Assembly (NCBI GenBank): GCA_001563915.1
Contig: LKMP01000008.1
Span: 1-36,536 of the forward strand
From: Nanohaloarchaea archaeon B1-Br10_U2g21
GTDB lineage: Archaea > Nanohalarchaeota > Nanosalinia > Nanosalinales > Nanosalinaceae
DNA: 36,536 bases
Reading direction: 5' to 3'
Made by a program: the position numbers and the translations under genes. The notes under the pieces were generated by a model. It was not told where the DNA came from. It saw nothing but the letters and a program-made list of their open reading frames with translations, and ran no database searches. This document shows positions 2,075 to 32,270 of the stretch, in pieces (position 1 is the first letter of the stretch; every line of letters starts with the position of its first letter).

Positions 2075-5000
2075 GTGAACTGGAAGAAGGTTGTCTGTGG
2101 AGTTCTGCTCGTTTTAATGCTTTCTGGAAGTGTGTTCGCAGAATGGAGTGATGGAGATAAATCACAAAATATTTTCGAAGGCGTAGAAACCCAAGACTCC
2201 GAAAAAGTATACATAGATCCAATTTTAGAATCTGAATTCCACACTGGTATTTCTATTCAGACCAGAGAGACAGTGAAAGTTATCGTGAACTTTGGATCTT
2301 ACGAAGAGGCTGAAGATAGAGAAGATATGCAGGCAGAAGCCTCGAAATCTCAAGAACCTATTATGAATTTAGCAGATAATAATCCGGAAATAGAGGTCAA
2401 GAATCAGTTCTGGATCGCGAATGCGGTGCTTCTTGAAATAGAAAATGATTTTCCACTAGAAAAAATTGCTCAAGTAGGGGGAGTAGAAGAAATACAGGAG
2501 AATGCTGAGGTTTCAACTCTTGAAACTAATGAATTAGGTTCGCAAAGCTCTTCAGCGTCTAAAACGTATGGTCTTAACCAAATAAATACTAGTGAAGTCT
2601 GGGAAGAGTTTGATACAAAAGGAGAGGGTGTAAAAGTAGCAGTTTTAGATACAGGTATAGATTCTGGCCATCAAGATCTCGAACTTTATACAGAGGAAGA
2701 CTCTGATCCTACATACCCGGGAGGATGGGCAGAGTTTGATAATGGAGAGGTAGATGACTCTGAACCCTACGACTGTGGAACGCACGGAACTCACGTCAGC
2801 GGCACAGTAGCAGGGGGGAATGAGTCAGGAGAGAGTATAGGTGTAGCTCCTAATACTAAATTGCTTCATGCAGGTGTCTTAATGCAAGAGGAAGATGGAG
2901 AGTGTACAGGAGACCATTCAGATATTTTGGATGGCATGGAATGGGCGGTTGAAAACAATGCGGATATTATCAGTATGAGCCTTGGGGTCGAAGGTTACTG
3001 GGGGTCTGCTATAGATGCCGTTCGTGGAGCTGAAGAGGAAGGAGTATTAGTCATTGCTGCATCAGGTAATAATGGAGAAGGAACTAGCTTTGCTCCTGCT
3101 AATGTATATGAGTCATTTGCAATAGGCGCAGCAGACAGCGAAGATGATATAGCAAGTTTTTCGAGCGGAGAAAAAGTTGAAGATTCAAACTGGCAAGGCA
3201 CTCCTCCTGAAGATTGGCCGGACCAATATATTGTGCCGGATGTAGTAGCGCCTGGTGTTGGAGTGAAAAGTTCAGTGCCAAACGATAATTATGATTATTT
3301 TGAAGGAACTAGTATGGCTGCACCTCATGTATCAGGAGCTGCAGCGCTAATACAGTCTGCAACTTCTACTTATTTGGATCCTGATGAGTTAAAAGAGTCT
3401 TTTATTGAAACAGCGAGGAAACCTAGCGACTGGAATGAAGAGGATGCTGAAGATGAAATAGACGGCCAAGACACTCGCTACGGAGAAGGTGTAATTGATG
3501 CTCACAGCGCAGTAGAGTATGCTTTCGAAAACTTTGAAAAGCCGCGGTTCGAGATAAGTGAGTTAGAAATAAATCCTGAAGAAATCATTGAAGGAGACTC
3601 TGTTAATGTTACAGGCATTGTTAATAATACAGGAAGCGAAGATAAAGCAGATTTACGTCTTGAAGTTAATCAGGCTGAAGTAGCACAAAAAGACGTAAAA
3701 ACAGTTTTTGAAGACGCTGAAGAGTTTTATTTTGAGGAACAGTTTGATGAACCAGGTTCCTATAATATTTCGGTAAACGGTACGAAATCTGGAAACCTCA
3801 ACGTTTTGAAAGCACCAGAACTTGAAATAAATGAATTCAATTTATCAGAATCAGAAATACTTGAAAATGAGTCTACTCAGGCCACTTTAAACGCAGAAAA
3901 TATTGGCGAGGCGGAAGGAGTATTTAATGTAAATCTTTCTGTAGGAGGGACGGTAGTACAGAACAGCTCTTTGGTACTAGAAGAAGGGGAAAAAGATACA
4001 GTAGAATTTGAAGAAGGGTTCGACAAATGGGGGAGTTATAATATTTCGTCAAATCAGAAATATGAAACACTTCAAGTCTTAAAACCCGGCTCTATAGAAT
4101 TTTTGAACAGTTCTGTAGGGCAAAGAGAGATTGGAAAAGGAGATCAAGCCGAATTTTTCATAGAAGCAAAAAATCCGGGAAATGTTAGCGTAGAAGACAA
4201 TTTTCACTTCAAAATAAACGATAGCTTAGAGGATCAAAAAAATGTTGAAATAGAAAACAATTCTCGTGAAGAATTCAGATTTTCTAGTAAAGAGTTAGAA
4301 GAAAAAGGCAGATATGACTTATCTGTTAATGGTTCTAAATCTCAAGTAATTGACGTTTTGAAACCTGGAGAACTGCAGAATAACGAAATCTTTTTGTCTT
4401 CAGAAGAAGTTGTAGCAGGAGAGAAGGCAAACATAACTAGCACAGTAGAAAATATTGGCGAAGTAACAGATGAGTTCGATGTAGATCTTTTGTTAGATAG
4501 GAACGGAGAAAATCTTGCAAATGAGTCAAAAAAAGTAGAAGTGGATGCAGGTGAAGAAAAAAATGTTACTTTTGAAAAAGCTATTGAAGAACCCGGAAAA
4601 TATACTGCAGAATCTTTGAAGAAGTCAAAAAACTTCACAGTACTAAAAGACGCTGATCTTGGGGTAAAGCAGGCCTCAACAAATGCAAGCAAAATATTTA
4701 CAGGCCAATACCTAGAATTAGAGGCCTTAGTAGGTAATGAAGGGGAGGTAGCAGGAAAAGACGTTTTTAACTTTACTGTGGGCAATGATTCAGTTCTGAA
4801 TAAGTCTGAAGAATTGGATCCTGGAGAAAACATGACGGTATCTCAGAAGTTACAGTTAGAAGACAAAGGTAACTTCACGGCAGCAATAAATGATACTAGT
4901 GCCGGTGAAATCGAGGTTAGTAGGCCTTTTGTTAACATTACTTCTGCTGAGGCAGATTTTTCAGATTCTGGTCTGATAGAAATTGATGCATCTTTGAATA

Positions 5001-14702: not shown

Positions 14703-15404
14703 CTAATCGCCTATATAGTCGCCATTAACTCTTCTAAAATCGGGTTGCTCCATTTCTTCTCTGACATGTGCTACTAATCCAGGAGTCCTAGCGATAATAA
14801 AAAACCCTTTACCAAGTTCTGGTTCAAAACTGAGATCGCTCATTATTCCTGCTATTGCGCCATCAACGTTTAACACTAGTCTAGTTTTTTCCTCTCCAAA
14901 AATTCTATGAATTTTCAGCATCTTTTCAGTGTATTTTCCTTTTAAATTCAGTTTCTCTGCAGTCTCTAGCATTTTCATACTTCTAGGATCTTCTTTTTCA
15001 TAGACTTTATGCCCTAAGCCCGGTATTTTTTCTCCAGCCTCTAACTTTTTTTCTACTATTTTCTCTGCCGAGGTCTCTGATTGGAGTAAGTCCATACATT
15101 CTTCGATTGCTCCGCCGTGTTTATCTCCTAGAGCCATTATACCTGCAGCTACTGAAGTGTTCATAGAATTTCCTCCGCTTTGTACTGTTCGAGAAGCAAC
15201 TGTTGAAGGATTTCCTATCCCATGATCGATACAGCTTGATAGAATTGTGTTAAATATCTCTGATTCTCTTTCTGTAGGCTTTTCGCCTTTCAGGATCAGA
15301 AATATTGCATCGCTAAATGGCATATCCATTACTGTCTCTAAATCTATGCCTCTAACTTTTGAGTTATCGCCGGAAGAAGATATTTCGGTTTCCCAGTTTG
15401 CCAT
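14703..15404 (-). CDS. Citryl-CoA lyase (stand-alone citrate-synthase-like domain)
   Basis: DHG...S, GDKHGGAIE, IPGLGHK, LNVDGAI, ARTPGL.AH motifs; 233 aa is too short for a full citrate synthase. Confidence 0.88.
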   Translation of the reverse strand: MANWETEISSSGDNSKVRGIDLETVMDMPFSDAIFLILKGEKPTERESEIFNTILSSCIDHGIGNPSTVASRTVQSGGNSMNTSVAAGIMALGDKHGGAIEECMDLLQSETSAEKIVEKKLEAGEKIPGLGHKVYEKEDPRSMKMLETAEKLNLKGKYTEKMLKIHRIFGEEKTRLVLNVDGAIAGIMSDLSFEPELGKGFFIIARTPGLVAHVREEMEQPDFRRVNGDYIGD

Positions 15405-15428
15405 GATAATAATTTTTCTAGAGAATAG

Positions 15429-15836
15429 TTAATTCTTTGGATTTTGTTTACTTTGATAATACTTTTCGGTTCTTTCCTCTAACTTAGGGAAAATATCAGA
15501 AGCTATAGAATCAGCATAGGAATCAGGAGAGCTTATATTGTTATCAACATTCAGAAATTTTCTCACAAGACCATTAAGCGAAAATTCTACGCCATAATCA
15601 ATTCTCCAGCTTGACTGTGTTGCATCTTCTTCAGAGTACGCCATCCCTGAGTAAATAGTGTACGTGATACTATCTTCGCCTACTTCTTTCACGAGCTCAC
15701 GGCTCTCGTCATTATTAGCATGGTCTATGACGGCCATAGGGTTCAGAGCGTATCGATTATTCCCCTCGACATTGACTGGTAATTCATACATCTGCCAATC
15801 ATCCGTAGATTTTGAATTCTGTTCCGTGGTACTCAC
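15429..15836 (-). CDS. Hypothetical protein inside the citrate-cleavage operon
   Basis: 135-aa acidic ORF whose GTG start overlaps the upstream stop (GTGA). Confidence 0.65.
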   Translation of the reverse strand: MSTTEQNSKSTDDWQMYELPVNVEGNNRYALNPMAVIDHANNDESRELVKEVGEDSITYTIYSGMAYSEEDATQSSWRIDYGVEFSLNGLVRKFLNVDNNISSPDSYADSIASDIFPKLEERTEKYYQSKQNPKN

Positions 15837-16720
15837 AGTATCTCCTCAAGCACATCACTTATTTCATGATGCACATCTACCACATGAGCTCCTGAATCTT
15901 TTAGAACCTTTTTTTTGTAGCTAGGGCTTTCTTCATTTTCTCTTATAATTGCTCCAGCATGACCATATTGTTGAGAGGGCAGAGATTCAGTAAACTCTCC
16001 TGCAATAAAGGCAACAACAGGTTTAGAGAACTCTTCCTCAATATATCTTGCGGCCTCTAACTCATATCGTCCGCCAAGCTCTCCAAACATTACGACTGCG
16101 TCAGTTTGACTATCTTTTTCAAACAATTTTAGACAGTCTTTAAAGTTCGTACTTGCTATACGATCGCCTCCAAGACCCAAAGCAGTTGAAATACCTAAAC
16201 CGGACTGCCCTAATACATGAGCAGTCTCTGTTGTCATGCCGCCGCTCTTAGACATTAAGCCAATGTGGCCTTGCTGATAAACTTTTTCAGTATCTTTGCC
16301 TCCTATAGGCCCGAGCTTTGATTTGCCTGGAGAGATTATACCAACTGACGTAGGCCCTACCACTCTAGCACCAGTGTTCTGGGCTTTCCTGTAAATTTGC
16401 CACGCATCCTTTACTGGCACGCGTTCAGTAACAATATTCAGAAGAGGTATTCCGGATTCTAAAGCTTCAAAAGCTGCATCCTTCGCCGCAAAGTGAGGCA
16501 CATATACTAAAGAAGCGTTTATATCAGGATAGTCTTCTAGAGCTTCTTCAACGGTATCATATACAGGCACACCTTCTACATTTTCACCGCCTTTTCCCGG
16601 AGTAACTCCTGCAAGTATTTCAGTTCCGTAATCAAGCATTTCAGGAACTTTTTCTGAAGCCTCTCGACCCGTTATTCCTTGCACAAGCACTTTTGTATTC
16701 TTATCTATTAGTATGCTCAT
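15833..16720 (-). CDS. SucD-like CoA-binding subunit (citryl-CoA synthetase small subunit / ACL N-terminal part)
   Basis: VLVQGITG, GVTPGKGG, GP..VGII.PG, SKSGGMT, GLGGD, phospho-His motif QYGHAGAII. Confidence 0.9.
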   Translation of the reverse strand: MSILIDKNTKVLVQGITGREASEKVPEMLDYGTEILAGVTPGKGGENVEGVPVYDTVEEALEDYPDINASLVYVPHFAAKDAAFEALESGIPLLNIVTERVPVKDAWQIYRKAQNTGARVVGPTSVGIISPGKSKLGPIGGKDTEKVYQQGHIGLMSKSGGMTTETAHVLGQSGLGISTALGLGGDRIASTNFKDCLKLFEKDSQTDAVVMFGELGGRYELEAARYIEEEFSKPVVAFIAGEFTESLPSQQYGHAGAIIRENEESPSYKKKVLKDSGAHVVDVHHEISDVLEEIL

Positions 16721-17346
16721 TTTAACACTCTTAGTACTGCTTTAACATCATTGTAGCTGACTTTTTTGATTTTAAGACCGCTATAATGAGTACCAAATAC
16801 ACAGTACTGAGTTACCCAGACAAAGCTCATCTCAGTTTTTTCAGCGGCAAGATCTCTGTCCACATTATTTCCAAAATATGCAAATCTTTCTCGCTCTTCA
16901 TCCCTTTGGCTTAGAAAAGCCTCGAATATTTCTTCATTAGGCTTCTTAACCCCGACTTCTTCCGAGACCACTAGGCCTTTGTAATCTAATTCAGCATCCG
17001 AGAACACTTTAGTATAGAATTTTTTGGCCTCAATTGAGTTGTCGCTGATAAATCCTATTGGCCCAAATTCAGAATCTATCTTTTTTAGCTCTGGAATTAT
17101 TTCTTCTTTCAAAAATTTTTCTGCCCAAATCTCATATTTTTCCTTAATTATTGAAGGATTAGCGTGAAGCCCTTCTGAATCTAGCCATCTTGCCACTTCT
17201 TCAGTCTTAAAAACATTGAAACTATTAATCGGCATTTTTACAGGAGTTTGGCCGTTTCTTTCTAGCTCTTTTGAAACAAATTCGTTTATTTTGCTGTTAT
17301 CAGGGATTAAAGTGTCTCCTATGTCAAATACAGGGATTTTATTCAT
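16717..17346 (-). CDS. HAD-superfamily hydrolase
   Basis: FDIGDTL motif I, ISDN motif II, KP motif III, GN...D motif IV; ATGA-coupled on both sides. Confidence 0.85.
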   Translation of the reverse strand: MNKIPVFDIGDTLIPDNSKINEFVSKELERNGQTPVKMPINSFNVFKTEEVARWLDSEGLHANPSIIKEKYEIWAEKFLKEEIIPELKKIDSEFGPIGFISDNSIEAKKFYTKVFSDAELDYKGLVVSEEVGVKKPNEEIFEAFLSQRDEERERFAYFGNNVDRDLAAEKTEMSFVWVTQYCVFGTHYSGLKIKKVSYNDVKAVLRVLK

Positions 17347-18476
17347 AGACTATCCTCACTCTTTATCATGTCCATTAATTTCTTTGATGATTCTGTCATC
17401 GGTAAGTCGTTCCGATAAAGATTCATGTTTAAATCTAGTTTTTCCCGAGTTTTTTCTAATAGTTCAAATGCTTTTTCAGCGTTAGGCCCATCTCTACGAA
17501 TTACTATTGGATATTCGGGCTCCTCTTCTTCTAGTGCTTGACAAAATCCTCTCATTGTCCTGTAAATATCAGTATTATTAGCTGTTCCTCCCACATGTAG
17601 TAATCCTTTGAGATTTGGTTTTGACATTATGACTTTACTAAGCCGGTAAACTTTTTCTGTCGGAGGATTTCCACCATACTCGGTATAATTTGCAGGTTTC
17701 CCTCCATAAGCTATCAGAGAATCCATATTTGTAAGTGAGGCGCCTCCACCAGCAAGCATCATGCCTATATCGCCCTCTAGCTCAACGTATTTGCCAGCTA
17801 CACCTCTGTGATCCTCTTCATCTATTTTTTCGGCCTCTATTTCTCTTTCAGTTTTCTCCCTTTTGAAAGCAGTTCTTTTAGGATAGCTCCAATTATGGCG
17901 GAAGGATGCGTCATTATCGAGCTCCATTTTAGCGTCGACGGCTATTAAATCCTTTTTAGAATCCAAAACTAAAGGGTTCACTTCTAGCATCATTGCGTCC
18001 TCTTCAAGAAACACGTTGAAAATTAGGTGTGTGATTATACTTAACCTGTCTGAAATATCATCTGAGAGCTCTGCGCTTCTTAGCTTCTCCGTAAACTCTT
18101 TTTTGCTGCCTTTCTCTATTTTAAATTTCGTTATTTCTCTGTTTTCTACGCCTGATCCTCCATCAGCTGAAAATAAAAACACTGGTCCTCGTGTAGAGGT
18201 ATCATAGACAAAAGAAATGTAGTATTCATGTTCTATATCCACTTTTTCTTCTATAAGTACGGACTCTACTTTTCTACCGGCTAGTTTGCCGTTTTTCATA
18301 TCTTCAGCAATTCTTTCTGCTTTTTTCCGACTTTCTGCAAATTTTATTCCTCCTTTAGATTTTCGATTCTTTTCAAGTATCTGTGCTTTCACAACGAAGG
18401 ATTCGCCGTCTTTTGAAGGAGTGGGGATGTCATGTTTCTCTAAGATTTTCTTTGTCTCGTGTTCTAATAGCTCCAC
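17343..18476 (-). CDS. ATP-grasp subunit with citrate-binding domain (ATP citrate lyase beta / citryl-CoA synthetase large subunit)
   Basis: LLEHE.K, R...GGI, EVNPL, DAK..LD; ACL-type AGGGAS, ANY.EY.GNP and GG.AN.TD motifs instead of SucC NGAGL/NFLD/NIFGGI. Confidence 0.88.
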   Translation of the reverse strand: MELLEHETKKILEKHDIPTPSKDGESFVVKAQILEKNRKSKGGIKFAESRKKAERIAEDMKNGKLAGRKVESVLIEEKVDIEHEYYISFVYDTSTRGPVFLFSADGGSGVENREITKFKIEKGSKKEFTEKLRSAELSDDISDRLSIITHLIFNVFLEEDAMMLEVNPLVLDSKKDLIAVDAKMELDNDASFRHNWSYPKRTAFKREKTEREIEAEKIDEEDHRGVAGKYVELEGDIGMMLAGGGASLTNMDSLIAYGGKPANYTEYGGNPPTEKVYRLSKVIMSKPNLKGLLHVGGTANNTDIYRTMRGFCQALEEEEPEYPIVIRRDGPNAEKAFELLEKTREKLDLNMNLYRNDLPMTESSKKLMDMIKSEDSL

Positions 18477-20033: not shown

Positions 20034-20507
20034 TTAAGCATTTGCTATTAGATAACCAAGGAAAAATAAAGAAATCCAGCCTATTACAGACACGACTGCA
20101 GCAAGACCTGCAACTTTTTCAAACGTTTTTACTTTTTCTGTTCTATTCTCCCACTCTGGTGCGAGTTCTTGGAATTTGGGAGTCACCCAGATATTAAGAA
20201 ATACTCCGTTAAGGAATACTATTACCACTATAAACATTTTAACTTGGAAAGATCTTTCTAGGGCCAAGTTAGGATGCATTAGAAACATTAAGAGGCCTGT
20301 AATCGAGAGTATAAGGAAACCTACCCAGATAATGAGAGAGAATATAGGAGCCATCATCGCATTGTACTTGGCATTACTTGGTTTAAGATGCATGTAACCA
20401 TTTACAGCATCAGTCATCAGTACTGCCCCAATAGCAGTTATAGCTCCGAATACGTGAAGCATATGGAGTGTAAAATGAGGATCCAATACTGGCGATAAAT
20501 CAATCAC
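20034..20507 (-). CDS. Four-TM membrane protein with His in TM1 (CopD/DUF2269-like, possibly heme or metal binding)
   Basis: Four hydrophobic helices, HMLHVFG in TM1, K and NG..LN in TM3; aligns by eye to the VKOR C-terminal domain in this window. Confidence 0.75.
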   Translation of the reverse strand: MIDLSPVLDPHFTLHMLHVFGAITAIGAVLMTDAVNGYMHLKPSNAKYNAMMAPIFSLIIWVGFLILSITGLLMFLMHPNLALERSFQVKMFIVVIVFLNGVFLNIWVTPKFQELAPEWENRTEKVKTFEKVAGLAAVVSVIGWISLFFLGYLIANA

Positions 20508-20746
20508 GATTCAACCACCTCTATTTCATTAAGCAAAGTAGTGGCTATGAAATATAGGCTAGTCAAAGCGACTGTCAGAGTCAATAATATTACAAAATAA
20601 GAAAAACTTGATACTCCTAACGCCTCAGAAACACTGAATAAGGATTCGCTTTCAGGGTCATGTGAGGCTACTTTTGTAATAAGTGCCAGAAAGGCCACTA
20701 AAAGACCTGATAATTTCTCCATATATCGGATTTTACATTCCATCAT
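20504..20746 (-). CDS. Small membrane protein (signal-like segment + TM)
   Basis: Two hydrophobic segments; stop overlaps the start of the 4-TM gene; the true start may be the internal MEKL. Confidence 0.5.
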   Translation of the reverse strand: MMECKIRYMEKLSGLLVAFLALITKVASHDPESESLFSVSEALGVSSFSYFVILLTLTVALTSLYFIATTLLNEIEVVES

Positions 20747-20802: not shown

Positions 20803-22137
20803 ATGGATAGAGAGTTCATTATCCCTTCAATATTTGTAGCAGCGCTAACTTTGATGCTGTTTTCTGGCCTTACTTATCTGGGATATGAACATATTACTGA
20901 GGCCTCTGTTGAAGGCGAGCCAGATGTAGTCATTGATATGTTAGCAGACGATTGGTACTTTGAGCCCGATAAAATTACTGTTAGTGAAGGAGACCATGTT
21001 AGACTTGTAATCGAGACAGAACACTCTGAAACAGGTACTTATGATCACGGTATCCACATACCTAGTTTAGGAGTAAACGAGCCTCTTGCAGCTGGAGAGA
21101 CACATGAAGTAGAGTTTATAGCTGATGAAGCCGGAGAACATCAGTTTTACTGTAATGTATACTGCGGAGAAGGACATCATAATATGGAGGGAGAAATTAT
21201 AGTAGAAGAAAACAGTCATGAGGATCATGGCGACGGAACTGAATCTGATTACGAAGATTACGATTTACCTGTTCGAGGTTCAGAAGATGCTATTGAGGAA
21301 TTATCTTATGAAACAGATAGTGAGGGTGTGAAGGTCTTTAATCTAACAGCAGAACACGTAATGTGGGACTACGGAGAAGATCATCTTGGACAGTCTCACG
21401 TGGTCGAATCATGGGGGTATAACGGTCAGCTTCCCGGCCCTGAAATCAGAGTAACCGAAGGAGATGAAGTAAGAATTAATTTTGAAAATAAGGCTCCCAT
21501 CAATACTACAGTTCACTGGCATGGTGTAGACGTTCCAATTGAGGCAGATGGCGTGCCGGGGATAACACAGGAACCAGTAGGAGAAGACGAAACCTTCACC
21601 TACGAATTTACAGCAGAACCTTCAGGAACACGATTCTATCATACTCATGGATCCGATCATACTGATGAGGCAGAACAAATGGATATGGGGCTAGCAGGCC
21701 CTCTGATCATAGAGCCTGAAGAGTTTGAAGAACCTGATGTAGACTACACAATGGTGCTATCTGAAAGAATAGGGGAAGGAATATATCCGATTCAGGGACA
21801 GATATATCCTAACGTGCCTGCTATAGAAGTTGAAGAAGGAGACTTGGTCAGAGTAAGAATGATAAATGCAGGTTCTACAACTTTCCATCCAATGCATCTA
21901 CACGGTCATCAGTTTGACGTTATAGCAAAGGATGGTAACCCTGTGCCTGAAGAAGCAGTACAGGAACGAAATGTCAAAACAGTTCATCCAGGAGAAACTA
22001 TGGATATAGAGTTTGTAGCAGATAATCCGGGAAAATGGATGTTCCACTGCCACGAATTATCTCATGCTGGAGGAGGTATGATCGCAGAAGTAGTCTATGA
22101 TGGCTATGAGGAAGATCATTCAGCTGAGCATCACTAA
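20803..22137 (+). CDS. Membrane-anchored CuA-type cupredoxin fused to a two-domain multicopper oxidase
   Basis: Start reassigned to ATG 20803 (MDREF), followed by a TM anchor. CuA motif H...CNVYCGEGHHNM; MCO motifs HWHG, YHTH, HPMHLHG, HCHELSHAGGGM. Confidence 0.9.
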   Translation: MDREFIIPSIFVAALTLMLFSGLTYLGYEHITEASVEGEPDVVIDMLADDWYFEPDKITVSEGDHVRLVIETEHSETGTYDHGIHIPSLGVNEPLAAGETHEVEFIADEAGEHQFYCNVYCGEGHHNMEGEIIVEENSHEDHGDGTESDYEDYDLPVRGSEDAIEELSYETDSEGVKVFNLTAEHVMWDYGEDHLGQSHVVESWGYNGQLPGPEIRVTEGDEVRINFENKAPINTTVHWHGVDVPIEADGVPGITQEPVGEDETFTYEFTAEPSGTRFYHTHGSDHTDEAEQMDMGLAGPLIIEPEEFEEPDVDYTMVLSERIGEGIYPIQGQIYPNVPAIEVEEGDLVRVRMINAGSTTFHPMHLHGHQFDVIAKDGNPVPEEAVQERNVKTVHPGETMDIEFVADNPGKWMFHCHELSHAGGGMIAEVVYDGYEEDHSAEHH

Positions 22138-22144
22138 TTTTTCG

Positions 22145-22891
22145 CTATAGCTTCTTGTTCCACTGGGCTGATGAAAACTTTTTTTCCGCTAATATTGATG
22201 CCTTTTCAACTTCTTCTTTCGTCAAAGTTCCTTCTTCATACTTCTTGTTCTCTGTAAATTTTTCAATTAATTTTTCTACTACTTCCTCTCGAGAATGATC
22301 AGTATGGTCGCTTATACGAGTTACTCGTTTCTCTGCTGACTCAATAGCTTTATCGCTAACTTTTTCCTTTCCTATTCTTAGTGCTTTCAGCATATTCTCA
22401 ATGTTAAGATCGTAACTTATCATGGTATGATGCAATACAGCATTGTTTTTCCGTATCTGGGCTGCACCTCCTAGCTTTCCATCTTGATGCTCTATGTCAT
22501 TAAGTGGAGCATACATGGCTTCAACTCCAAGACTGTTTAGAGCGTCTACTGCAAACTCATCTAACTCTCTATAACTTTTCTCAATATCTCTATTTACTGC
22601 TTTTTTTGGAATATAAATCGAGTAAGTTATTACGTTTCCTGGTTCTGAGAACATTGCGCCTCCACCAGTAATTCTTCTGACAACTTCGATTCCGTTTTCT
22701 TCCACATATTCATGCTCTACTTCATCTTTGTATGCCTGGAATCTGCCCATAGGGACACTAGTATTTTCACGATACCAGAATCGTAGAGTAGGTTGCATCT
22801 CGCTATTGTCCAACTTTTGTGTTAGTACTTCATCTATGGCGTGATGCATAGCTTCTGAGTAACAACCTTCATTGATTATTCTCCATTTCAT
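22145..22891 (-). CDS. lplA: Lipoate-protein ligase A, catalytic subunit
   Basis: RRITGGGAMF, NDI....KLGGAAQ, LHH motifs. Confidence 0.93.
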   Translation of the reverse strand: MKWRIINEGCYSEAMHHAIDEVLTQKLDNSEMQPTLRFWYRENTSVPMGRFQAYKDEVEHEYVEENGIEVVRRITGGGAMFSEPGNVITYSIYIPKKAVNRDIEKSYRELDEFAVDALNSLGVEAMYAPLNDIEHQDGKLGGAAQIRKNNAVLHHTMISYDLNIENMLKALRIGKEKVSDKAIESAEKRVTRISDHTDHSREEVVEKLIEKFTENKKYEEGTLTKEEVEKASILAEKKFSSAQWNKKL

Positions 22892-23169
22892 TTTGACTCA
22901 CCTATGCTCTTTTTTACAGCTTCTGCAACCGAGGCTGCAGAAAAACCTATTAAATCTGCCTCAACCTTTTTTATGGCCTCTTTAAGAGCTTCTTTTTCTG
23001 AGTCTATTTTAAGACCTGTTAACGCGTCTTCTATTTCCTTTAGGGCTTCTGGAGGCTCAATAAAGAAGTCTCCGCGAACTTTCACATTGGTGAGTTTTTC
23101 TTCGTCATAATGGGTTTCAACTTTGACTAGTTTGCCTTCTGGGACTTTCACAGAAGCCTGTCCTTTCAT
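22888..23169 (-). CDS. Lipoate-protein ligase accessory subunit (LplB / LplA C-terminal domain)
   Basis: Start reassigned to ATG 23169; KVP.GKLV.V and GDFF.EP motifs; ATGA-coupled to lplA. Confidence 0.88.
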   Translation of the reverse strand: MKGQASVKVPEGKLVKVETHYDEEKLTNVKVRGDFFIEPPEALKEIEDALTGLKIDSEKEALKEAIKKVEADLIGFSAASVAEAVKKSIGESK

Positions 23170-23221
23170 AGGTAAGAATAAACTATTGAGCTTATTATAC
23201 ATTTTTGACAACATAATAGTT

Positions 23222-23971
23222 ATGGAATCTAGAAGCGGCATTAATTATAGGAGGACTGATGGCGAAGGAAAGCCTCTCGTATTTGTGCATGGATGGTTAG
23301 GCTCAAGAAAGTCATGGAAGCTTGTGGAAGGGCATCTTAATCTCGAGAATCCAAAAATATTTCTGGATCAGCGATGTCATGGTAGTTCTCCTTGTCGAAA
23401 GTTTTCTATTAGGGATCTTGCAGAGGATTTGAAAGAGGTAGTAGATGAGTCTTGTGATGAAGACCCAATAATTGTAGGTCACTCGATGGGAGGAATGACG
23501 GCATTACAGTATGCAGCTATGCATGATGGCTATGAGTCTCTATGTCTTTTGGGAACTTGTGCATCGACTCCGGAGCCTGAGATTGAGTCTCCTCGTTTTT
23601 TCCTTGAGAAGTTAAACGAAATGGATAGAAAAGAATGGGCCAGAATGATAACCAAGAATTATCTTGGAAATACTGGGGAGAAAGAGTTGAAGAAAGCCAC
23701 AGAACTTGAGTTAAGAGATGCGGAGAAAAAACCTATTATCTATGGTTTAGAGGCTATGATAGAGTATGATATAAGAGATCAATTATCGTCTGAAACTCAC
23801 GCCATAGTTGTCGCAGGAGAAAATGATGGAGCTATCACTTTGGAAAAATCTCGAGAGGTAGCAGAACTGTTAAACGCCGATACAGTAATTATTGATTCAG
23901 GTCATTTGATGCTGCATGAACGGCCCAAAAGAATTGCACAGATAATAGAAAAATTTGTCCAAGATTTATGA
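23222..23971 (+). CDS. Alpha/beta-fold hydrolase
   Basis: Start reassigned to ATG 23222; FVHGW, GHSMGG nucleophile elbow, GEND, SGH catalytic His. Confidence 0.92.
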   Translation: MESRSGINYRRTDGEGKPLVFVHGWLGSRKSWKLVEGHLNLENPKIFLDQRCHGSSPCRKFSIRDLAEDLKEVVDESCDEDPIIVGHSMGGMTALQYAAMHDGYESLCLLGTCASTPEPEIESPRFFLEKLNEMDRKEWARMITKNYLGNTGEKELKKATELELRDAEKKPIIYGLEAMIEYDIRDQLSSETHAIVVAGENDGAITLEKSREVAELLNADTVIIDSGHLMLHERPKRIAQIIEKFVQDL

Positions 23972-24748
23972 GCTGTTTAAATCTTCTTTCATGATAGGAC
24001 AGAAACCTCTATAACGTTCTCCTCCAGAGGCTTCTATTGGGTTTTCAAGCCAATCTATTGAACTGTATTTTTCTGCGAGATTTTCAACTTGGGCATTATT
24101 TTCTTGAGAAAATTCTATATTCTGAAAGCCTGCAGAATCAAAGTTTCGTTCTAGATGTTCTACAGTTTCTTTGGTGCTTGCTCCTAAATCAGAGATTGAG
24201 GGAAGATTATCTATAACAGTTCTCTCACCAGCTCTCAGGCTAGTAATCTCATCTAAGACGTCTCCGTCCCAATCGTCACCTGAAATAAAACCAGCGTAAA
24301 GAATTCTACCATTGGCCCTTTGATTGCTAGAACCAGAAATTGGAAGATTATTGTACCTTACGCTACGATCATCTTTTCTTATACTCAGTCGATCAGAATC
24401 TAGTCCGGATTCTTCAAGAGATGCTACGATACATTCTGCTATAGATTCTTCGAAAAACTCTCCCATTCCACTTGCTGCGTTTAAAGGCACTGAAACTGCA
24501 AAATGAATGTCTTCAGGCCTACACATGAAGACTGAGCCGCCTGTTAATCTTCTGCTGTAATCAAGATTTTTAGCATCTAAAAAATCATGGTTTAATGCAT
24601 CATAAGGCTCGTTATTTCCGAGCAATACTCCAGCTTCATCGTAATTAAGGATGCTATAAAGTGTTTCTTCCTCTGGAGAATCTGTTAGATATTCCATAAA
24701 ACCAAGAGTAGTATATAGATCTTCTGAATATTCGTGGTTAGAGCCCAT
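23966..24748 (-). CDS. Divergent lipoate-ligase (BPL/LplA/LipB family) paralog
   Basis: LLG.N, RRLTGGSVF, ISGSS and KY.S.DW motifs; the usual Lys before xGxx is Pro. Confidence 0.75.
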   Translation of the reverse strand: MGSNHEYSEDLYTTLGFMEYLTDSPEEETLYSILNYDEAGVLLGNNEPYDALNHDFLDAKNLDYSRRLTGGSVFMCRPEDIHFAVSVPLNAASGMGEFFEESIAECIVASLEESGLDSDRLSIRKDDRSVRYNNLPISGSSNQRANGRILYAGFISGDDWDGDVLDEITSLRAGERTVIDNLPSISDLGASTKETVEHLERNFDSAGFQNIEFSQENNAQVENLAEKYSSIDWLENPIEASGGERYRGFCPIMKEDLNSS

Positions 24749-25054: not shown

Positions 25055-26356
25055 TTAGCATTCTTCACCCCAGTTCGGCTGTTTATCATCCTCGCCTTCA
25101 AAACCAGCTCCGCTGTCAAAATCAGAAGGTTTTTCTTCAATCTGCTCAACACACCAATCACTGATATCCTGATCAAAACTGCTTGCACCACGAAACATTC
25201 GCCACATAGACTCCACATTTGAGGTGTCCCAGTCGCTGATATCCTGATCAAAACTGCTTGCACCATCGAACATTCTCTGCATATTTGTAACACTTTCAGT
25301 TTCCCAGTCGCTGATATCCTGATCAAAATTACTGGCATCAGTAAACATTCGCCTCATAGTTGTTACTTCTGACGTGTCCCAATCCTCCATTCCCTCTCCT
25401 CTAAAATCAGTTCTTTCAAACATATCGGACATGCTATTCACGCTGCTAGTGTCCCATCCGCTTACATCGCCATCGAAACTAGATGCATCCTCAAATGCAT
25501 CGCTAAAAGAAGAAACTTCAGAAGTGTCAGGTATGTCCGAGTAGTTGTCTTCCATATTTTCCGCATCATCAAAAGCGCCATTAAAGCTTTGGTATTTTAT
25601 ATCTCCCCATTGTTCTATGGTTTTGACTTTTAGTTCGTCTCCTTCTCTTAGTCTTGGGTGGGGGTATAATCCTCTGATTCTTATTTCGTGGAGTCCTGGT
25701 TCTTTGAATTCGATTATGTGGTTGTTGGTTAGTGGGTCTATTATTTCTTCATTTCCTTCTCCGTCTAGGTTTTCCCATTCTAATTGGTATTCGAAGTTGC
25801 CGCCGCCCGTGCCTAGTTCGAATTCGTTGTCTTCTGTTTCTCCTTCTTTTGTGGAGTTTACTTGGAAAATTAGTGGTTCCATATCAAAAAATTCGGAACC
25901 TTCAATGATTTCGAAGTTTCCGGAAATTGTGCCGGTGTTTTCTAAGTTTTCTAGGTTGCCTTGATTATAGTTTAGTGTGATGTCTAAATTGTTTGCTGAG
26001 TTTCCGTCTTCTATTTGTAGGAATGTGGCTGTATTAGTGTCGGTTACGTCTAGTGTTGCTTGTTCTCCGCTTGGTTGCCATATTGCTTCTTTTTGTCCGT
26101 CTGTTACTTTTACTTTGTTCAGTTCTATTGTTTCTGCACCACCATTCCTTAGCACTAGCTGTAGTTGGTCTTCAACGTTCAAACCTACGTCATCTACTAG
26201 CACACTGTCTCCGTCGAATCCTGAAGCGCTTTGCGGGCTTTCACTCTGGGTTATAGAGAAAATGGCTCCTCCTACTACTGCTACTACGAGGAGCATCCAA
26301 CCATATGTCATTAGGTATTCGATGGCTGATTGGCCTTTGAGTCTTTCTACTTTCAC
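25055..26356 (-). CDS. Class III signal (pilin-like) protein fused to BspA-type/DUF285 repeats
   Basis: KG|QSAIEYLMTYGWMLLVVAVVGG N-terminus, IEQWG motif, 25-aa repeats MF..ASSFDQDISDWDTS.V; GTG start. Confidence 0.88.
   Translation of the reverse strand: MKVERLKGQSAIEYLMTYGWMLLVVAVVGGAIFSITQSESPQSASGFDGDSVLVDDVGLNVEDQLQLVLRNGGAETIELNKVKVTDGQKEAIWQPSGEQATLDVTDTNTATFLQIEDGNSANNLDITLNYNQGNLENLENTGTISGNFEIIEGSEFFDMEPLIFQVNSTKEGETEDNEFELGTGGGNFEYQLEWENLDGEGNEEIIDPLTNNHIIEFKEPGLHEIRIRGLYPHPRLREGDELKVKTIEQWGDIKYQSFNGAFDDAENMEDNYSDIPDTSEVSSFSDAFEDASSFDGDVSGWDTSSVNSMSDMFERTDFRGEGMEDWDTSEVTTMRRMFTDASNFDQDISDWETESVTNMQRMFDGASSFDQDISDWDTSNVESMWRMFRGASSFDQDISDWCVEQIEEKPSDFDSGAGFEGEDDKQPNWGEEC
25161..25340. 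repeat. 75-bp-period coding tandem repeat (DUF285 units)
   Basis: ctgatatcctgatcaaaa recurs at 25161, 25236 and 25311; the first two copies share 30 identical nt. Confidence 0.9.
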
Positions 26357-30388: not shown

Positions 30389-31144
30389 CTAACGCCTGTA
30401 TTTCCGGAATATATAATCTATTACGCGGCTAGGCAGAAATTTTTCTGCTTTGGAAAGAAATTTAGCTTCAGAAGTGATAGTATAGCGAGGCTTTTTGCCA
30501 TATAAAATTATTTTAGCAAGCTGCTTTCCTGCTTTTTCAGGGGATAAACCCTTCACATCTTCATTTAGTTTTTCTTCATAGAGATCTAAATACTTAGAGT
30601 TATCATATTTTGTTAAATTGGATCTACCATTCTCATTAAAGCCTGTTTTAACTCTCCCTGGCTCAACTAGAACCACATCTACATCTTTCAATTCTCTGCG
30701 CAAAGAATCAGTGAAACCTTCTACAGCATATTTGGATGCGCAATATCCGCTTAGAAAAGGCAAGCCTATTCGGCCAGCAATTGAGGAAACATTCACGATT
30801 TTTCCCTTACTTTTCCTTAGTTCTGGAAGACAGGCATGGACAACGTTTATTGTGCCTATGTAATTATGGTATATGTGTTCTTCAAAATCCTCTATTCTCA
30901 TGTCTTCAACAGAACCTTGTTTCTGTACTCCTGCGCAGTTCACAACTATATCTGTTTCAAAGTCTTCAAGTTGTTCAAAAACTTTTTGACGATTTGTGAT
31001 GTCTAGAACATGTTTTTCAACGCCTTTAAGCTGATCAAGGGCGTTAGAATCTCTATCAACTACAGAGACTTTGTTATTCTTTTTCAGCCACTTTACTGCC
31101 TTGAGGCCTATTCCATTCGCTCCTCCAATAACAAGTATTTTCAT
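30389..31144 (-). CDS. Short-chain dehydrogenase/reductase (SDR)
   Basis: GGANGIG, NCAG, VSS, YCASK. Confidence 0.95.
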   Translation of the reverse strand: MKILVIGGANGIGLKAVKWLKKNNKVSVVDRDSNALDQLKGVEKHVLDITNRQKVFEQLEDFETDIVVNCAGVQKQGSVEDMRIEDFEEHIYHNYIGTINVVHACLPELRKSKGKIVNVSSIAGRIGLPFLSGYCASKYAVEGFTDSLRRELKDVDVVLVEPGRVKTGFNENGRSNLTKYDNSKYLDLYEEKLNEDVKGLSPEKAGKQLAKIILYGKKPRYTITSEAKFLSKAEKFLPSRVIDYIFRKYRR

Positions 31145-32184
31145 TAGTGTAGAGGGCTCCAGTTAGGGATGCTGTCTTTGGCTCTAAGATCATATATTTT
31201 TTCTATTGCTAGTCCTGATAGGCTTGCCACTACTAAAAGTGCTGCATAGGTAGTTAGGAAGTAAGATGGCGGAGCTATAATTTCTACAGTCTTCAAGATG
31301 AATAGTGCGATCCAGGAGACTATTGAAATACTTGCCATAACGAATGCGGCTTTTCTGTAAACTCTATTCTGTCTGCTTTTAGGCTCTTCGCTGTTTCTAG
31401 AGAATTTTATGCCGATTATTTCCTGTGAAACTTTTAGATTGTAAACCGATCCGTTAATCAGTATAATTCCGATTATTGTTAGAAGAGTTAGGCTTTCTCC
31501 CGGGTGGAAGTGTCCTGCTAGATATAATCCTAGGCTTGTTAGAACTACTCCTCCTAGTGCGGCCCATGTCAAGTTGTTTAAAGTGTCTAATACGCTGGCT
31601 TGACGCTCTAGCATTTCAAAGTCTCTTAAGAAGTTGAGAAACAGGAAATCATAGGAAAGTGCTGTTCCTAGGCCTGCTGCAGCAACTAATACTCCTATTA
31701 TGCTTATGGCCAGTCCATATTGGGCCATTAAAGCACCTATACCTACAGCAGAAGCAGGAATTGCAAGAATCATTATCAGGGCGCATAGACTTGCAGATAC
31801 TAGACACCAAGTGCACCACATTTTCAAGGTAAATCCTTGAATAAATGTCAGATAAGCTGAAAATAACACTGCTAATGCGCTTGAAGCAATAACGCCGAGT
31901 ACAAACCAAGAAGGTAGTGTCTGCGCTGTTAATAGATAAATGGAGTAGCTTACAATTACCACGGCATAATACAATAATCCTAGTACTTCAACATCCAGAC
32001 CTAAAAATTTGGAATATTTACTTGTGATGACGTCTTCACAACTTCCGTCCATCGGACATGCCATGCCCTCTACATTAGTTTTCTTTTGGTAATGCAGGTA
32101 GGTGGATACTCCAAGTCCTGCGATTCCGATTAAAATTATCAAAGCTTGGAAAACTGGTTGCGAAAGTGTTGAAAAAAGTTCCAT
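31144..32184 (-). CDS. Vitamin K epoxide reductase (VKOR) family protein with extra C-terminal multi-TM domain
   Basis: Loop Cys pair CPMDGSC, TSKYS, redox CTWC; ~190 extra residues with ~5 TM helices; likely start ATG 32184 (alternative 32202). Confidence 0.9.
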   Translation of the reverse strand: MELFSTLSQPVFQALIILIGIAGLGVSTYLHYQKKTNVEGMACPMDGSCEDVITSKYSKFLGLDVEVLGLLYYAVVIVSYSIYLLTAQTLPSWFVLGVIASSALAVLFSAYLTFIQGFTLKMWCTWCLVSASLCALIMILAIPASAVGIGALMAQYGLAISIIGVLVAAAGLGTALSYDFLFLNFLRDFEMLERQASVLDTLNNLTWAALGGVVLTSLGLYLAGHFHPGESLTLLTIIGIILINGSVYNLKVSQEIIGIKFSRNSEEPKSRQNRVYRKAAFVMASISIVSWIALFILKTVEIIAPPSYFLTTYAALLVVASLSGLAIEKIYDLRAKDSIPNWSPLH

Positions 32185-32270
32185 ATCAAGTAATAGATAC
32201 ATCTTACTTAAATAAAATTCTGGTTTGAGATGGATTGTACTTTTAATCTTCTGGATTTTAGATGTGTACT

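Follow-up and report, generated by a model that had tools for sequence, protein, structure and literature searches.

Our analysis of a 36,536-nucleotide (nt) stretch of nanohaloarchaeal DNA (contig C8 of the source genome, G000; the whole stretch is hereafter called the window) has shown that one of its genes encodes a membrane-anchored cupredoxin, with the ligand set of a binuclear copper A (CuA) site, fused to a two-domain multicopper oxidase (MCO). The gene lies at 20803-22137 on the forward strand and specifies 444 amino acids (P0001); it was defined by its open reading frame (ORF) and translation, by Pfam matches and by an alignment of 53 family members (A1). The fusion represents an uncharacterised but conserved family, a two-domain MCO whose tethered cupredoxin carries a predicted CuA site, and no description of a CuA/MCO fusion family was found in the full-text literature searched. 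We give about an even chance to the reading that the protein is a haem-free, outward-facing, all-copper O2 reductase, in which CuA would relay electrons to a type 1 (T1) copper and a trinuclear cluster. The source genome (815,638 bp in 24 contigs) is 92% complete, and each control search was positive in the expected model genomes; families that our profile searches did not detect are reported as not found rather than as absent.

Architecture of the fusion protein

The protein starts with a predicted membrane helix (residues 3-33; 20809-20901, +), which appears as a helix in the AlphaFold2 (AF2) model and would act as a signal-anchor. The CuA-type cupredoxin follows (residues 40-135; 20920-21207, +), as indicated by Cupredoxin_1, by partial NosZ and CoxB matches, by phmmer matches in the Protein Data Bank (PDB) and by invariant ligands. 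Its loop has the form C117-x3-C121-x3-H125-x2-M128 (21151-21186), and an upstream ligand, H82 (21046-21048), precedes C117 by 34 residues, which we take to be the spacing of Thermus ba3 subunit II. A six-frame translation of the whole genome (1.63 million codons) contains the pattern C-x3-C-x3-H-x2-M a single time. Only three Cys are present in the fusion protein (C117, C121 and the T1 ligand C416), and all are predicted copper ligands. When the N-terminal domain alone was compared with the PDB by phmmer, the best matches were the CuA domains of Thermus ba3 subunit II (6pty, 2lln, 2cua and 1ehk_B; E 2.7e-11 to 4e-10). All CuA ligands align to the Thermus protein, with the loop CNVYCGEGHHNM opposite CNQYCGLGHQNM and 9 of 12 residues identical. 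N2O reductases (NosZ; ~5e-8) came next, and then nitrosocyanin. Partial NCBIfam matches were to NosZ C-termini (~1e-15) and CoxB (1.4e-11), all under the family cut-offs. The domain does not score as CoxB proper (PF00116, 17.8 against 22 bits; TIGR02866, 44.3 against 147.7), and the genome gave no PF00115 match. A preliminary description of this stretch had recognised the Cys motif as the CuA site of Cox2 and NosZ. The aligned ligands and the ba3 subunit II and NosZ matches in the PDB bear this out, and the CuA assignment is supported, as far as sequence can indicate, by the ligand set and by homology to COX2 and NosZ CuA domains.

A single helix followed by a CuA cupredoxin is the layout of a ba3-type subunit II. 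Because of this one-helix and CuA layout, the N-terminal 135 residues resemble an entire subunit II joined to another protein. By analogy with that layout, and given the copper domains themselves, these domains would lie on the outer side of the membrane. The best solved sequence relative, Thermus thermophilus ba3 subunit II (2cua/1ehk_B), likewise has one helix and then a cupredoxin with the H...C-x3-C-x3-H-x2-M set. It differs in that the domain studied here is fused to an MCO, that no subunit I was found in the genome, that the domain scores under the Pfam COX2 and TIGR CoxB cut-offs, and that most members of the new family carry Gln at the axial Met position.

The oxidase core is reached through an acidic linker with two His (residues 136-155; 21208-21267, +), predicted from its sequence and from a predicted local distance difference test (pLDDT) score below 50 at residues 138-149 to be disordered. 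MCO domain 1 (approximately residues 156-310; 21268-21732, +) was assigned from Cu-oxidase_3 and its invariant His; it contains HWH (238-240) and HTH (280-282) and has no T1 Cys. MCO domain 2 (approximately residues 311-435; 21733-22107, +), assigned from Cu-oxidase_2 and its invariant ligands, holds the T1 site and half of the trinuclear cluster. A short C-terminal tail with three His (DHSAEHH; 22108-22134, +) closes the protein, and His-rich tails end many of its relatives too. The Pfam matches are Cupredoxin_1 at 42-134 (4.6e-17), Cu-oxidase_3 at 201-306 (3.7e-40) and Cu-oxidase_2 at 331-432 (7.2e-35). Four HxH pairs (H238-W-H240, H280-T-H282, H365-L-H367 and H415-C-H417) supply the eight His of a trinuclear cluster. 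The T1 ligands H362, C416, H421 and M426 lie in domain 2 only, since domain 1 has HTH. The membrane anchor, the CuA motif, the two MCO domains, the single T1 site and the four HxH pairs had all been named in the preliminary description, and the ORF, the AF2 model and Pfam confirm them. It had also called the linker and tail His-rich; the His are there (two and three, respectively), but the enrichment is modest. The whole protein is very acidic (isoelectric point 4.25), and its AF2 model has a mean pLDDT of 87.7 and a predicted template-modelling score (pTM) of 0.67.

The top sequence matches among solved structures were three-domain MCOs (6vow, 4f7k and 6vox), which align in two to three pieces, whereas the two-domain MCOs 3g5w and 2zwn align collinearly as a single stretch (E ~1e-38). 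Foldseek returned 2zwn, 3g5w, 3gdc and 7rab as the best fold matches (E ~1e-26). With Cu-oxidase_3 and Cu-oxidase_2 present, no middle domain and T1 in domain 2 only, the core belongs with the two-domain MCOs; this is the arrangement that we assume is called type B, and Pfam, the collinear alignments and Foldseek agree with the earlier recognition of that pattern. An Atlas search with the oxidase gave only generic MCO and Copper-bind clusters (scores of 0.90 or less). Like mgLAC (2zwn), the Nitrosomonas europaea enzyme (3g5w), the Arthrobacter enzyme (3gdc) and Streptomyces SLAC (3cg8), the core has two cupredoxin domains, four HxH pairs and one T1 site, with target-normalised TM-scores of 0.72-0.82 and T1 in domain 2 as in SLAC. 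In contrast, these known enzymes are soluble and have neither a CuA domain nor a membrane anchor.

Enzymes with a tethered cupredoxin also appeared among the top fold matches, namely the three-domain copper nitrite reductase (NirK) of Hyphomicrobium (2dv6, 6tfo) and a Nitrosopumilus maritimus MCO with a C-terminal cupredoxin (9cck). In Hyphomicrobium denitrificans NirK and the N. maritimus MCO, a two-domain copper core carries an additional cupredoxin that serves it as an internal electron relay. That additional domain holds a mononuclear type-1 copper, whereas the one described here would be binuclear and of the CuA type, and it is N-terminal and membrane-anchored. By analogy, a cupredoxin tethered to a trimeric two-domain copper enzyme would thus have precedent in 2dv6 and 9cck.

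Conservation and distribution of the family

A word-indexed search yielded 5164 MCO relatives, the best 120 of which were inspected. The first 54 of these 120 (53 distinct sequences without the window's own copy) share a C-x3-C-G-x-G-H loop, and the 53 make up alignment A1. The family comprises at least 53 clusters at 90% identity and is frequent in metagenomes. A search for CuA and two-domain MCO fusions, suggested in the preliminary description, thus uncovered a 53-member family in which every copper ligand is invariant except the axial Met/Gln. H82, C117, C121, G122, G124 and H125 are conserved in 53/53 members, as are the eight trinuclear-cluster His and the four T1 ligands. At the axial position, Gln is present in 48/53 and Met in only 5/53, these being four acidic archaeal-type sequences and P0052. 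A C-terminal Sco1/SenC domain with a CxxxC motif is carried by 22/53 members. Sco1/SenC is the chaperone family that assembles CuA, and these domains are a family-level hint that CuA is a real redox site.

The family members named among the matches listed are Spirochaetaceae metagenome-assembled genomes. Their CuA-MCO-Sco fusions are 50-57% identical to the archaeal protein and have the same invariant ligands. They differ in adding a C-terminal Sco domain and an axial Gln, whereas the archaeal clade has Met, is highly acidic and has no Sco found in the genome. Among the next 22 matches listed (P0055-P0076), 20 have a different N-terminal cupredoxin with a single Cys; of these look-alikes, the single one with a named source is labelled Candidatus Saccharibacteria. 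The other two, P0063 and P0064, have yet another N-terminal domain and branch within the bacterial CuA clade in a quick tree. That tree, built by a quick search from 75 rows of family and out-group sequences, unites the four archaeal-type sequences in a single clade with a long branch (support 100), which lies outside the bacterial CuA clade. The tree names no donor and no direction of transfer.

Full-length copies of the gene were found in 3 of the 61 genomes searched (G000, G031 and G025). The G031 and G025 copies are 74% identical to that of the window and come from two other genera. Four other genomes of the same genus gave no full-length copy, three of them being only 68-82% complete. One further genome (G055) has a stand-alone 169-amino-acid open frame that is 55% identical to residues 3-136 of the fusion. 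When the genome collection was scanned with generic MCO peptides (HPMHLHGH and GTR[FI]YHTHG), a CuA motif within the oxidase ORF was seen at 0 of 78 loci among the matches listed. A metagenome pattern scan for the Gln-type CuA loop returned two loci. At a locus of Oceanobacillus bengalensis (L049), a separate 131-amino-acid ORF at about nt 1211 (+) has a CuA-type loop, CSIPCGEGHSEM, approximately 5 kb from a three-domain MCO; this ORF is possibly an unfused version of the CuA/MCO pairing.

One bacterial family member of the Sco type (locus L094), cut by a contig end, has a divergent neighbour at 3869-4540 (-) that encodes a 223-amino-acid membrane protein. This neighbour has no Pfam match. Its nearest Atlas clusters are ferric-reductase-like (score 0.95; 226/256 features; 24/30 matches), and its four His form two pairs with a spacing of 14, presumably the pattern of a di-haem membrane electron carrier such as MsrQ. 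From its sequence features, it may be a membrane electron feeder of the oxidase in bacteria, which would fit an electron-accepting CuA.

Neighbouring genes and host genome

Cysteinyl-tRNA synthetase of the source genome is 82-83% identical to the proteins of Candidatus Nanohaloarchaea archaeon and Nanohaloarchaea archaeon H01, and 68% identical to that of Ca. Nanohalococcus occultus; because of these identities, the host is taken to be a nanohaloarchaeon. The DNA stretch is present in two DNA sequencing runs of one salt-lake sample, and no RNA run was listed. The preliminary description had placed the protein in a lineage thought to lack respiration, in keeping with the nanohaloarchaeal host and with the finding that none of the seven respiratory families searched was detected. 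Profile searches did not find COX1 (PF00115), Cytochrome bd (PF01654), Proton_antipo_M (PF00361, for complex I-type subunits), Cytochrome_B (PF00033), Rieske (PF00355) or Cytochrom_C (PF00034), and E1-E2 ATPase (PF00122, the P-type ATPase family) was likewise not found. The genome does encode one halocyanin-like cupredoxin, a 151-amino-acid protein on contig C3 with a lipoprotein-like N-terminus and an H...C...H...M set.

Elsewhere in the window, at 14703-18476 (-) and 22145-24748, there are ATP-grasp_2 and Citrate_bind genes (ATP-citrate-lyase or succinyl-CoA-synthetase-like), two lipoate-protein-ligase-like genes and a gene for an LplA C-terminal domain. The ATP-grasp_2/Citrate_bind and lipoate-ligase genes were unexpected, as the lineage is reported to have no tricarboxylic acid cycle. 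Large surface proteins are encoded at 25055-26356 (-) and at L107:8646-10094 (-); they have an archaeal pilin-type signal, QSAIEYLMTYGW, at the start and repeated DxSxW(D/C/E) units in the C-terminal half.

Divergently from the oxidase, a 157-amino-acid, CopD-like membrane protein with four transmembrane helices (4-TM) is encoded at 20034-20507 (-), as judged from a sub-threshold CopD match and an AlphaFold model. The model is a four-helix bundle with a pLDDT of 96.2. Its CopD match (PF05425; 7.1e-5) scores 23.6 bits against a gathering score of 32.1, its orthologue in G031 reaches 29.7 bits against the same 32.1, and DUF4149 is also sub-threshold. A full HMMER search with the 4-TM module gave 440 representatives at E<=0.001, 83 of which were aligned (A3). 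K90, S140 and W144 are invariant in A3, and H18, D33, N100 and seven other positions are nearly so; the alignment contains only one nearly invariant His, and no haem or Cys pattern. Weak CopD matches (E<=0.01) were seen for 31/83 members, and 14/83 are fused to an N-terminal VKOR domain. The window itself encodes such a protein at 31144-32202 (-), a 352-amino-acid VKOR (PF07884, 4.2e-24; CTWC motif) with a C-terminal copy of the CopD-like module. Foldseek returned nothing at E<=0.001 for the 4-TM model. In the VIA wide fold search, designed helical bundles were on top (Z ~14), and cytochrome b561 (Z 11.8) fell within the helical-bundle background. A haem-based role for the window's 4-TM protein was considered and rejected, as it has one conserved His only.

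Strict orthologues of the 4-TM gene were found in G000 and G031 only, and both adjoin the oxidase. On a distant metagenome contig (L095), the 4-TM module lies directly upstream of a CuA-MCO, and the protein that contains the module continues beyond it with a His-rich linker and a weak cupredoxin-like domain. Two of eight 4-TM paralogue loci adjoin small T1-like cupredoxins, one of them in a copper island of G004, and only 2 of the 78 generic MCO loci have the module nearby, weakly. The module occurs in 14 of the 61 genomes, against 3 of 61 for the oxidase, which speaks against tight coupling. Furthermore, a syntenic locus of G028 (L099, contig C15, 983-2967) has the cobalamin adenosyltransferase, 4-TM and LplA genes without the oxidase; therefore, the oxidase was either inserted beside a resident 4-TM gene or lost there.

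The copper island (L108; G004:C48, 5542-9630) belongs to a same-genus genome that lacks the CuA-MCO. It contains a paralogous 4-TM gene, a 134-amino-acid lipoprotein cupredoxin with an axial Gln, a PadR regulator with a Cys-rich tail, DUF305 and a 645-amino-acid P-type ATPase. No copy of its P-type ATPase, DUF305 or PadR genes was found by tblastn in the window's own genome, and the two cupredoxins matched only the halocyanin-like gene on contig C3.

In a complex prediction, the membrane helix and CuA part of the fusion paired with the 4-TM protein at a score of 0.53, against 0.00 for the best of three controls. Of 157 solved complexes, 116 passed the mark, as did 2 of 215 mismatched pairs, but only 18 of the 157 passed it with scores of 0.60 or less, a range into which both of these mismatches fall. 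At least 87% of contacts recur between the runs, and the pLDDT of the partner is at least 84. The prediction lends weak support to a pairing of the two proteins. The preliminary description had suggested that the 4-TM neighbour feeds electrons to the oxidase. This was not upheld, as the protein has only a sub-cut-off CopD match, one near-invariant His, no haem or Cys pattern and no informative fold match, and occurs also without the oxidase. Since no sign of a redox cofactor is seen in the module, the 4-TM protein is more likely a copper-handling or docking partner than an electron wire. The pairing is reminiscent of the CopC-CopD and YcnJ copper-uptake systems, in which a small beta-sandwich copper protein accompanies a CopD-type membrane protein; the 4-TM module adjoins or is fused with cupredoxin-like domains in the window, G031, G004, G001 and L095. 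In contrast to those systems, its match to CopD is under the cut-off, it has only four helices, and it is paired with a cupredoxin instead of CopC.

A small conserved membrane ORF (20504-20746, -; probable start at M9, nt 20722) lies upstream of the 4-TM gene with a 4-nt overlap. By tblastn it matches the same position in G031 (L091) with 43% identity over 61 amino acids (E 1.7e-8), and it has no Pfam family. After a signal-like hydrophobic stretch it reads A-[S/A]-H (ASHD in the window, AAHS in G031); speculatively, cleavage at this point would expose an N-terminal X-X-His copper-binding motif. The oxidase ORF itself starts with ATG at 20803. A longer GTG start at 20683 is disfavoured and would overlap the small divergent ORF.

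Proposed function and its alternatives

With these data in hand, we propose that one helix would anchor the protein on the outer face of the membrane and that the oxidase core would trimerise like the solved two-domain MCOs, with each trinuclear cluster built jointly by domain 1 of one subunit and domain 2 of its neighbour. The tethered CuA, presumably derived from a single-helix ba3-type subunit II, would serve as both the electron-entry and the relay site. Electrons would then pass from a donor to CuA, to T1 and to the trinuclear cluster, where O2 would be reduced to water. The most plausible donor encoded by the genome would be the single halocyanin-like blue-copper lipoprotein, and quinols or metal ions are possible too. 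Along a path from halocyanin through CuA into T1, electron transfer would presumably be downhill in redox potential. The CopD-like 4-TM protein and the small upstream ORF would act as copper-supply or docking factors. For an aerotolerant fermenter, the role of such an enzyme would be O2 removal or provision of an external electron sink. The enzyme more probably disposes of O2 or electrons than supports energy-conserving respiration; energy conservation is not implied, because an outward-facing MCO takes both electrons and protons from outside the cell. The oxidase or O2 sink envisaged in the preliminary description is therefore retained as a sink, and to speak of respiration would be an overstatement. 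Passages of the published account of Ca. Nanohalobium constans describe it as an aerotolerant fermenting anaerobe without respiratory complexes, which did not reproduce above 4 mg/L dissolved O2 (PMC7443923). Because this cultured relative is O2-sensitive in that account, an O2-removing ectoenzyme would be useful.

Several observations weigh against this proposal. With Gln at the axial position in most members, the family site is not a textbook CuA. The patchy spread is typical of accessory resistance genes. Sco1 (PF02630) was not found in the genome, so that no CuA assembler was seen, and no quinol-oxidising or haem protein was found there that could reduce the halocyanin-like protein or CuA. 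At a pTM of 0.67, the AF2 model does not fix the placement of CuA relative to T1. The bacterial lead concerns one locus and a feature search that gives no E-value. Given the G028 locus, adjacency of the 4-TM gene and the oxidase may be partly historical, and a CopD-like neighbour that recurs in a same-genus copper island fits copper homeostasis as well as it fits assembly.

Cuprous oxidation is the main rival. According to this explanation, which we regard as possible but rather unlikely, the protein would oxidise cuprous or ferrous ions at the cell surface, as CueO or CopA do, with the Cys/His-rich N-terminal domain, linker and tail capturing Cu(I) for T1 while the CopD-like protein moves copper. 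The neighbour does match CopD, as do 31/83 of its family at E<=0.01, but the match is under the Pfam gathering score. In G004, the genes next to the 4-TM paralogue encode a small cupredoxin, DUF305, a P-type ATPase and a PadR-type regulator. Many family members end in His-rich tails, and the oxidase gene is patchily distributed (3/61 genomes). With no P-type ATPase found in the genome, an external oxidase could be the main copper defence. The best partial NCBIfam matches of the protein are copper_res_A and CueO; however, the scores are far under the cut-offs for CopA/PcoA (TIGR01480, 144.7 against 478.95) and CueO (NF008205, 121.5 against 525). The protein has two domains rather than three, its 13 Met in 444 residues are unclustered with no Met-rich segment, and it lacks a twin-arginine signal. 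Moreover, a mere copper trap would not require exact CuA geometry, including G122 and G124 in 53/53 members, nor a dedicated Sco domain in 22/53.

It is also conceivable, and in our estimation unlikely, that the protein is a membrane-tethered laccase, a quinol or phenol oxidase for small organic reductants such as hydroquinones or membrane quinols, either its own or those of a haloarchaeal host at the contact site, with CuA as an extra relay or a vestige. Hydroquinones are classic laccase substrates, and the core is nearest to two-domain laccases. VKOR enzymes reduce quinones, and the VKOR and 4-TM fusion in the window would depend on some means of re-oxidising quinol in a cell that has no terminal oxidases; however, the link between VKOR and the oxidase consists of a shared window and a shared module only, and a vestigial site is hard to reconcile with CuA ligands so strictly conserved. 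The copper-homeostasis and laccase explanations are both compatible with a functional CuA. This leaves a NirK-like nitrite reductase with a tethered electron-donor domain, suggested by the fold likeness to three-domain NirK (2dv6, 6tfo), a weak TIGR02376 match (4.8e-14) and nearest Atlas clusters auto-named as nitrite reductase family. In NirK, T1 lies in domain 1 and T2 is bound by three His, whereas the present protein has all four HxH trinuclear pairs, invariant in the family, and T1 in domain 2, and it scores 52.4 against the TIGR02376 cut-off of 296.3. We consider this explanation highly improbable and reject it on these grounds.

If the protein is indeed an all-copper O2 reductase, the natural coupling of CuA to a laccase core would add a new, copper-only design to the O2 reductases, and the fusion would be a compact model for electron transfer from CuA to T1. 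To our knowledge, CuA is found solely in haem-copper oxidases, N2O reductase and one NO reductase (qCuA-NOR), where electrons enter the enzyme through it. A bolder suggestion, which we make tentatively and hold to be doubtful, is that the family adds a fourth class to the CuA enzymes, a terminal oxidase built on copper only, whose CuA would supply a laccase-type T1/trinuclear centre and which would let a supposedly non-respiring DPANN symbiont put its own or its host's electrons onto O2. If true, the route would run through the halocyanin-like carrier, or through a host halocyanin or quinol at cell contact, and the bacterial relatives paired with a ferric-reductase-like membrane haem protein would constitute a new kind of quinol oxidase. 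An enzyme of this sort would alter the reading of oxygen tolerance and redox balance in the Nanohaloarchaeota, which passages of the published account portray as aerotolerant fermenters without respiratory complexes (PMC7443923).

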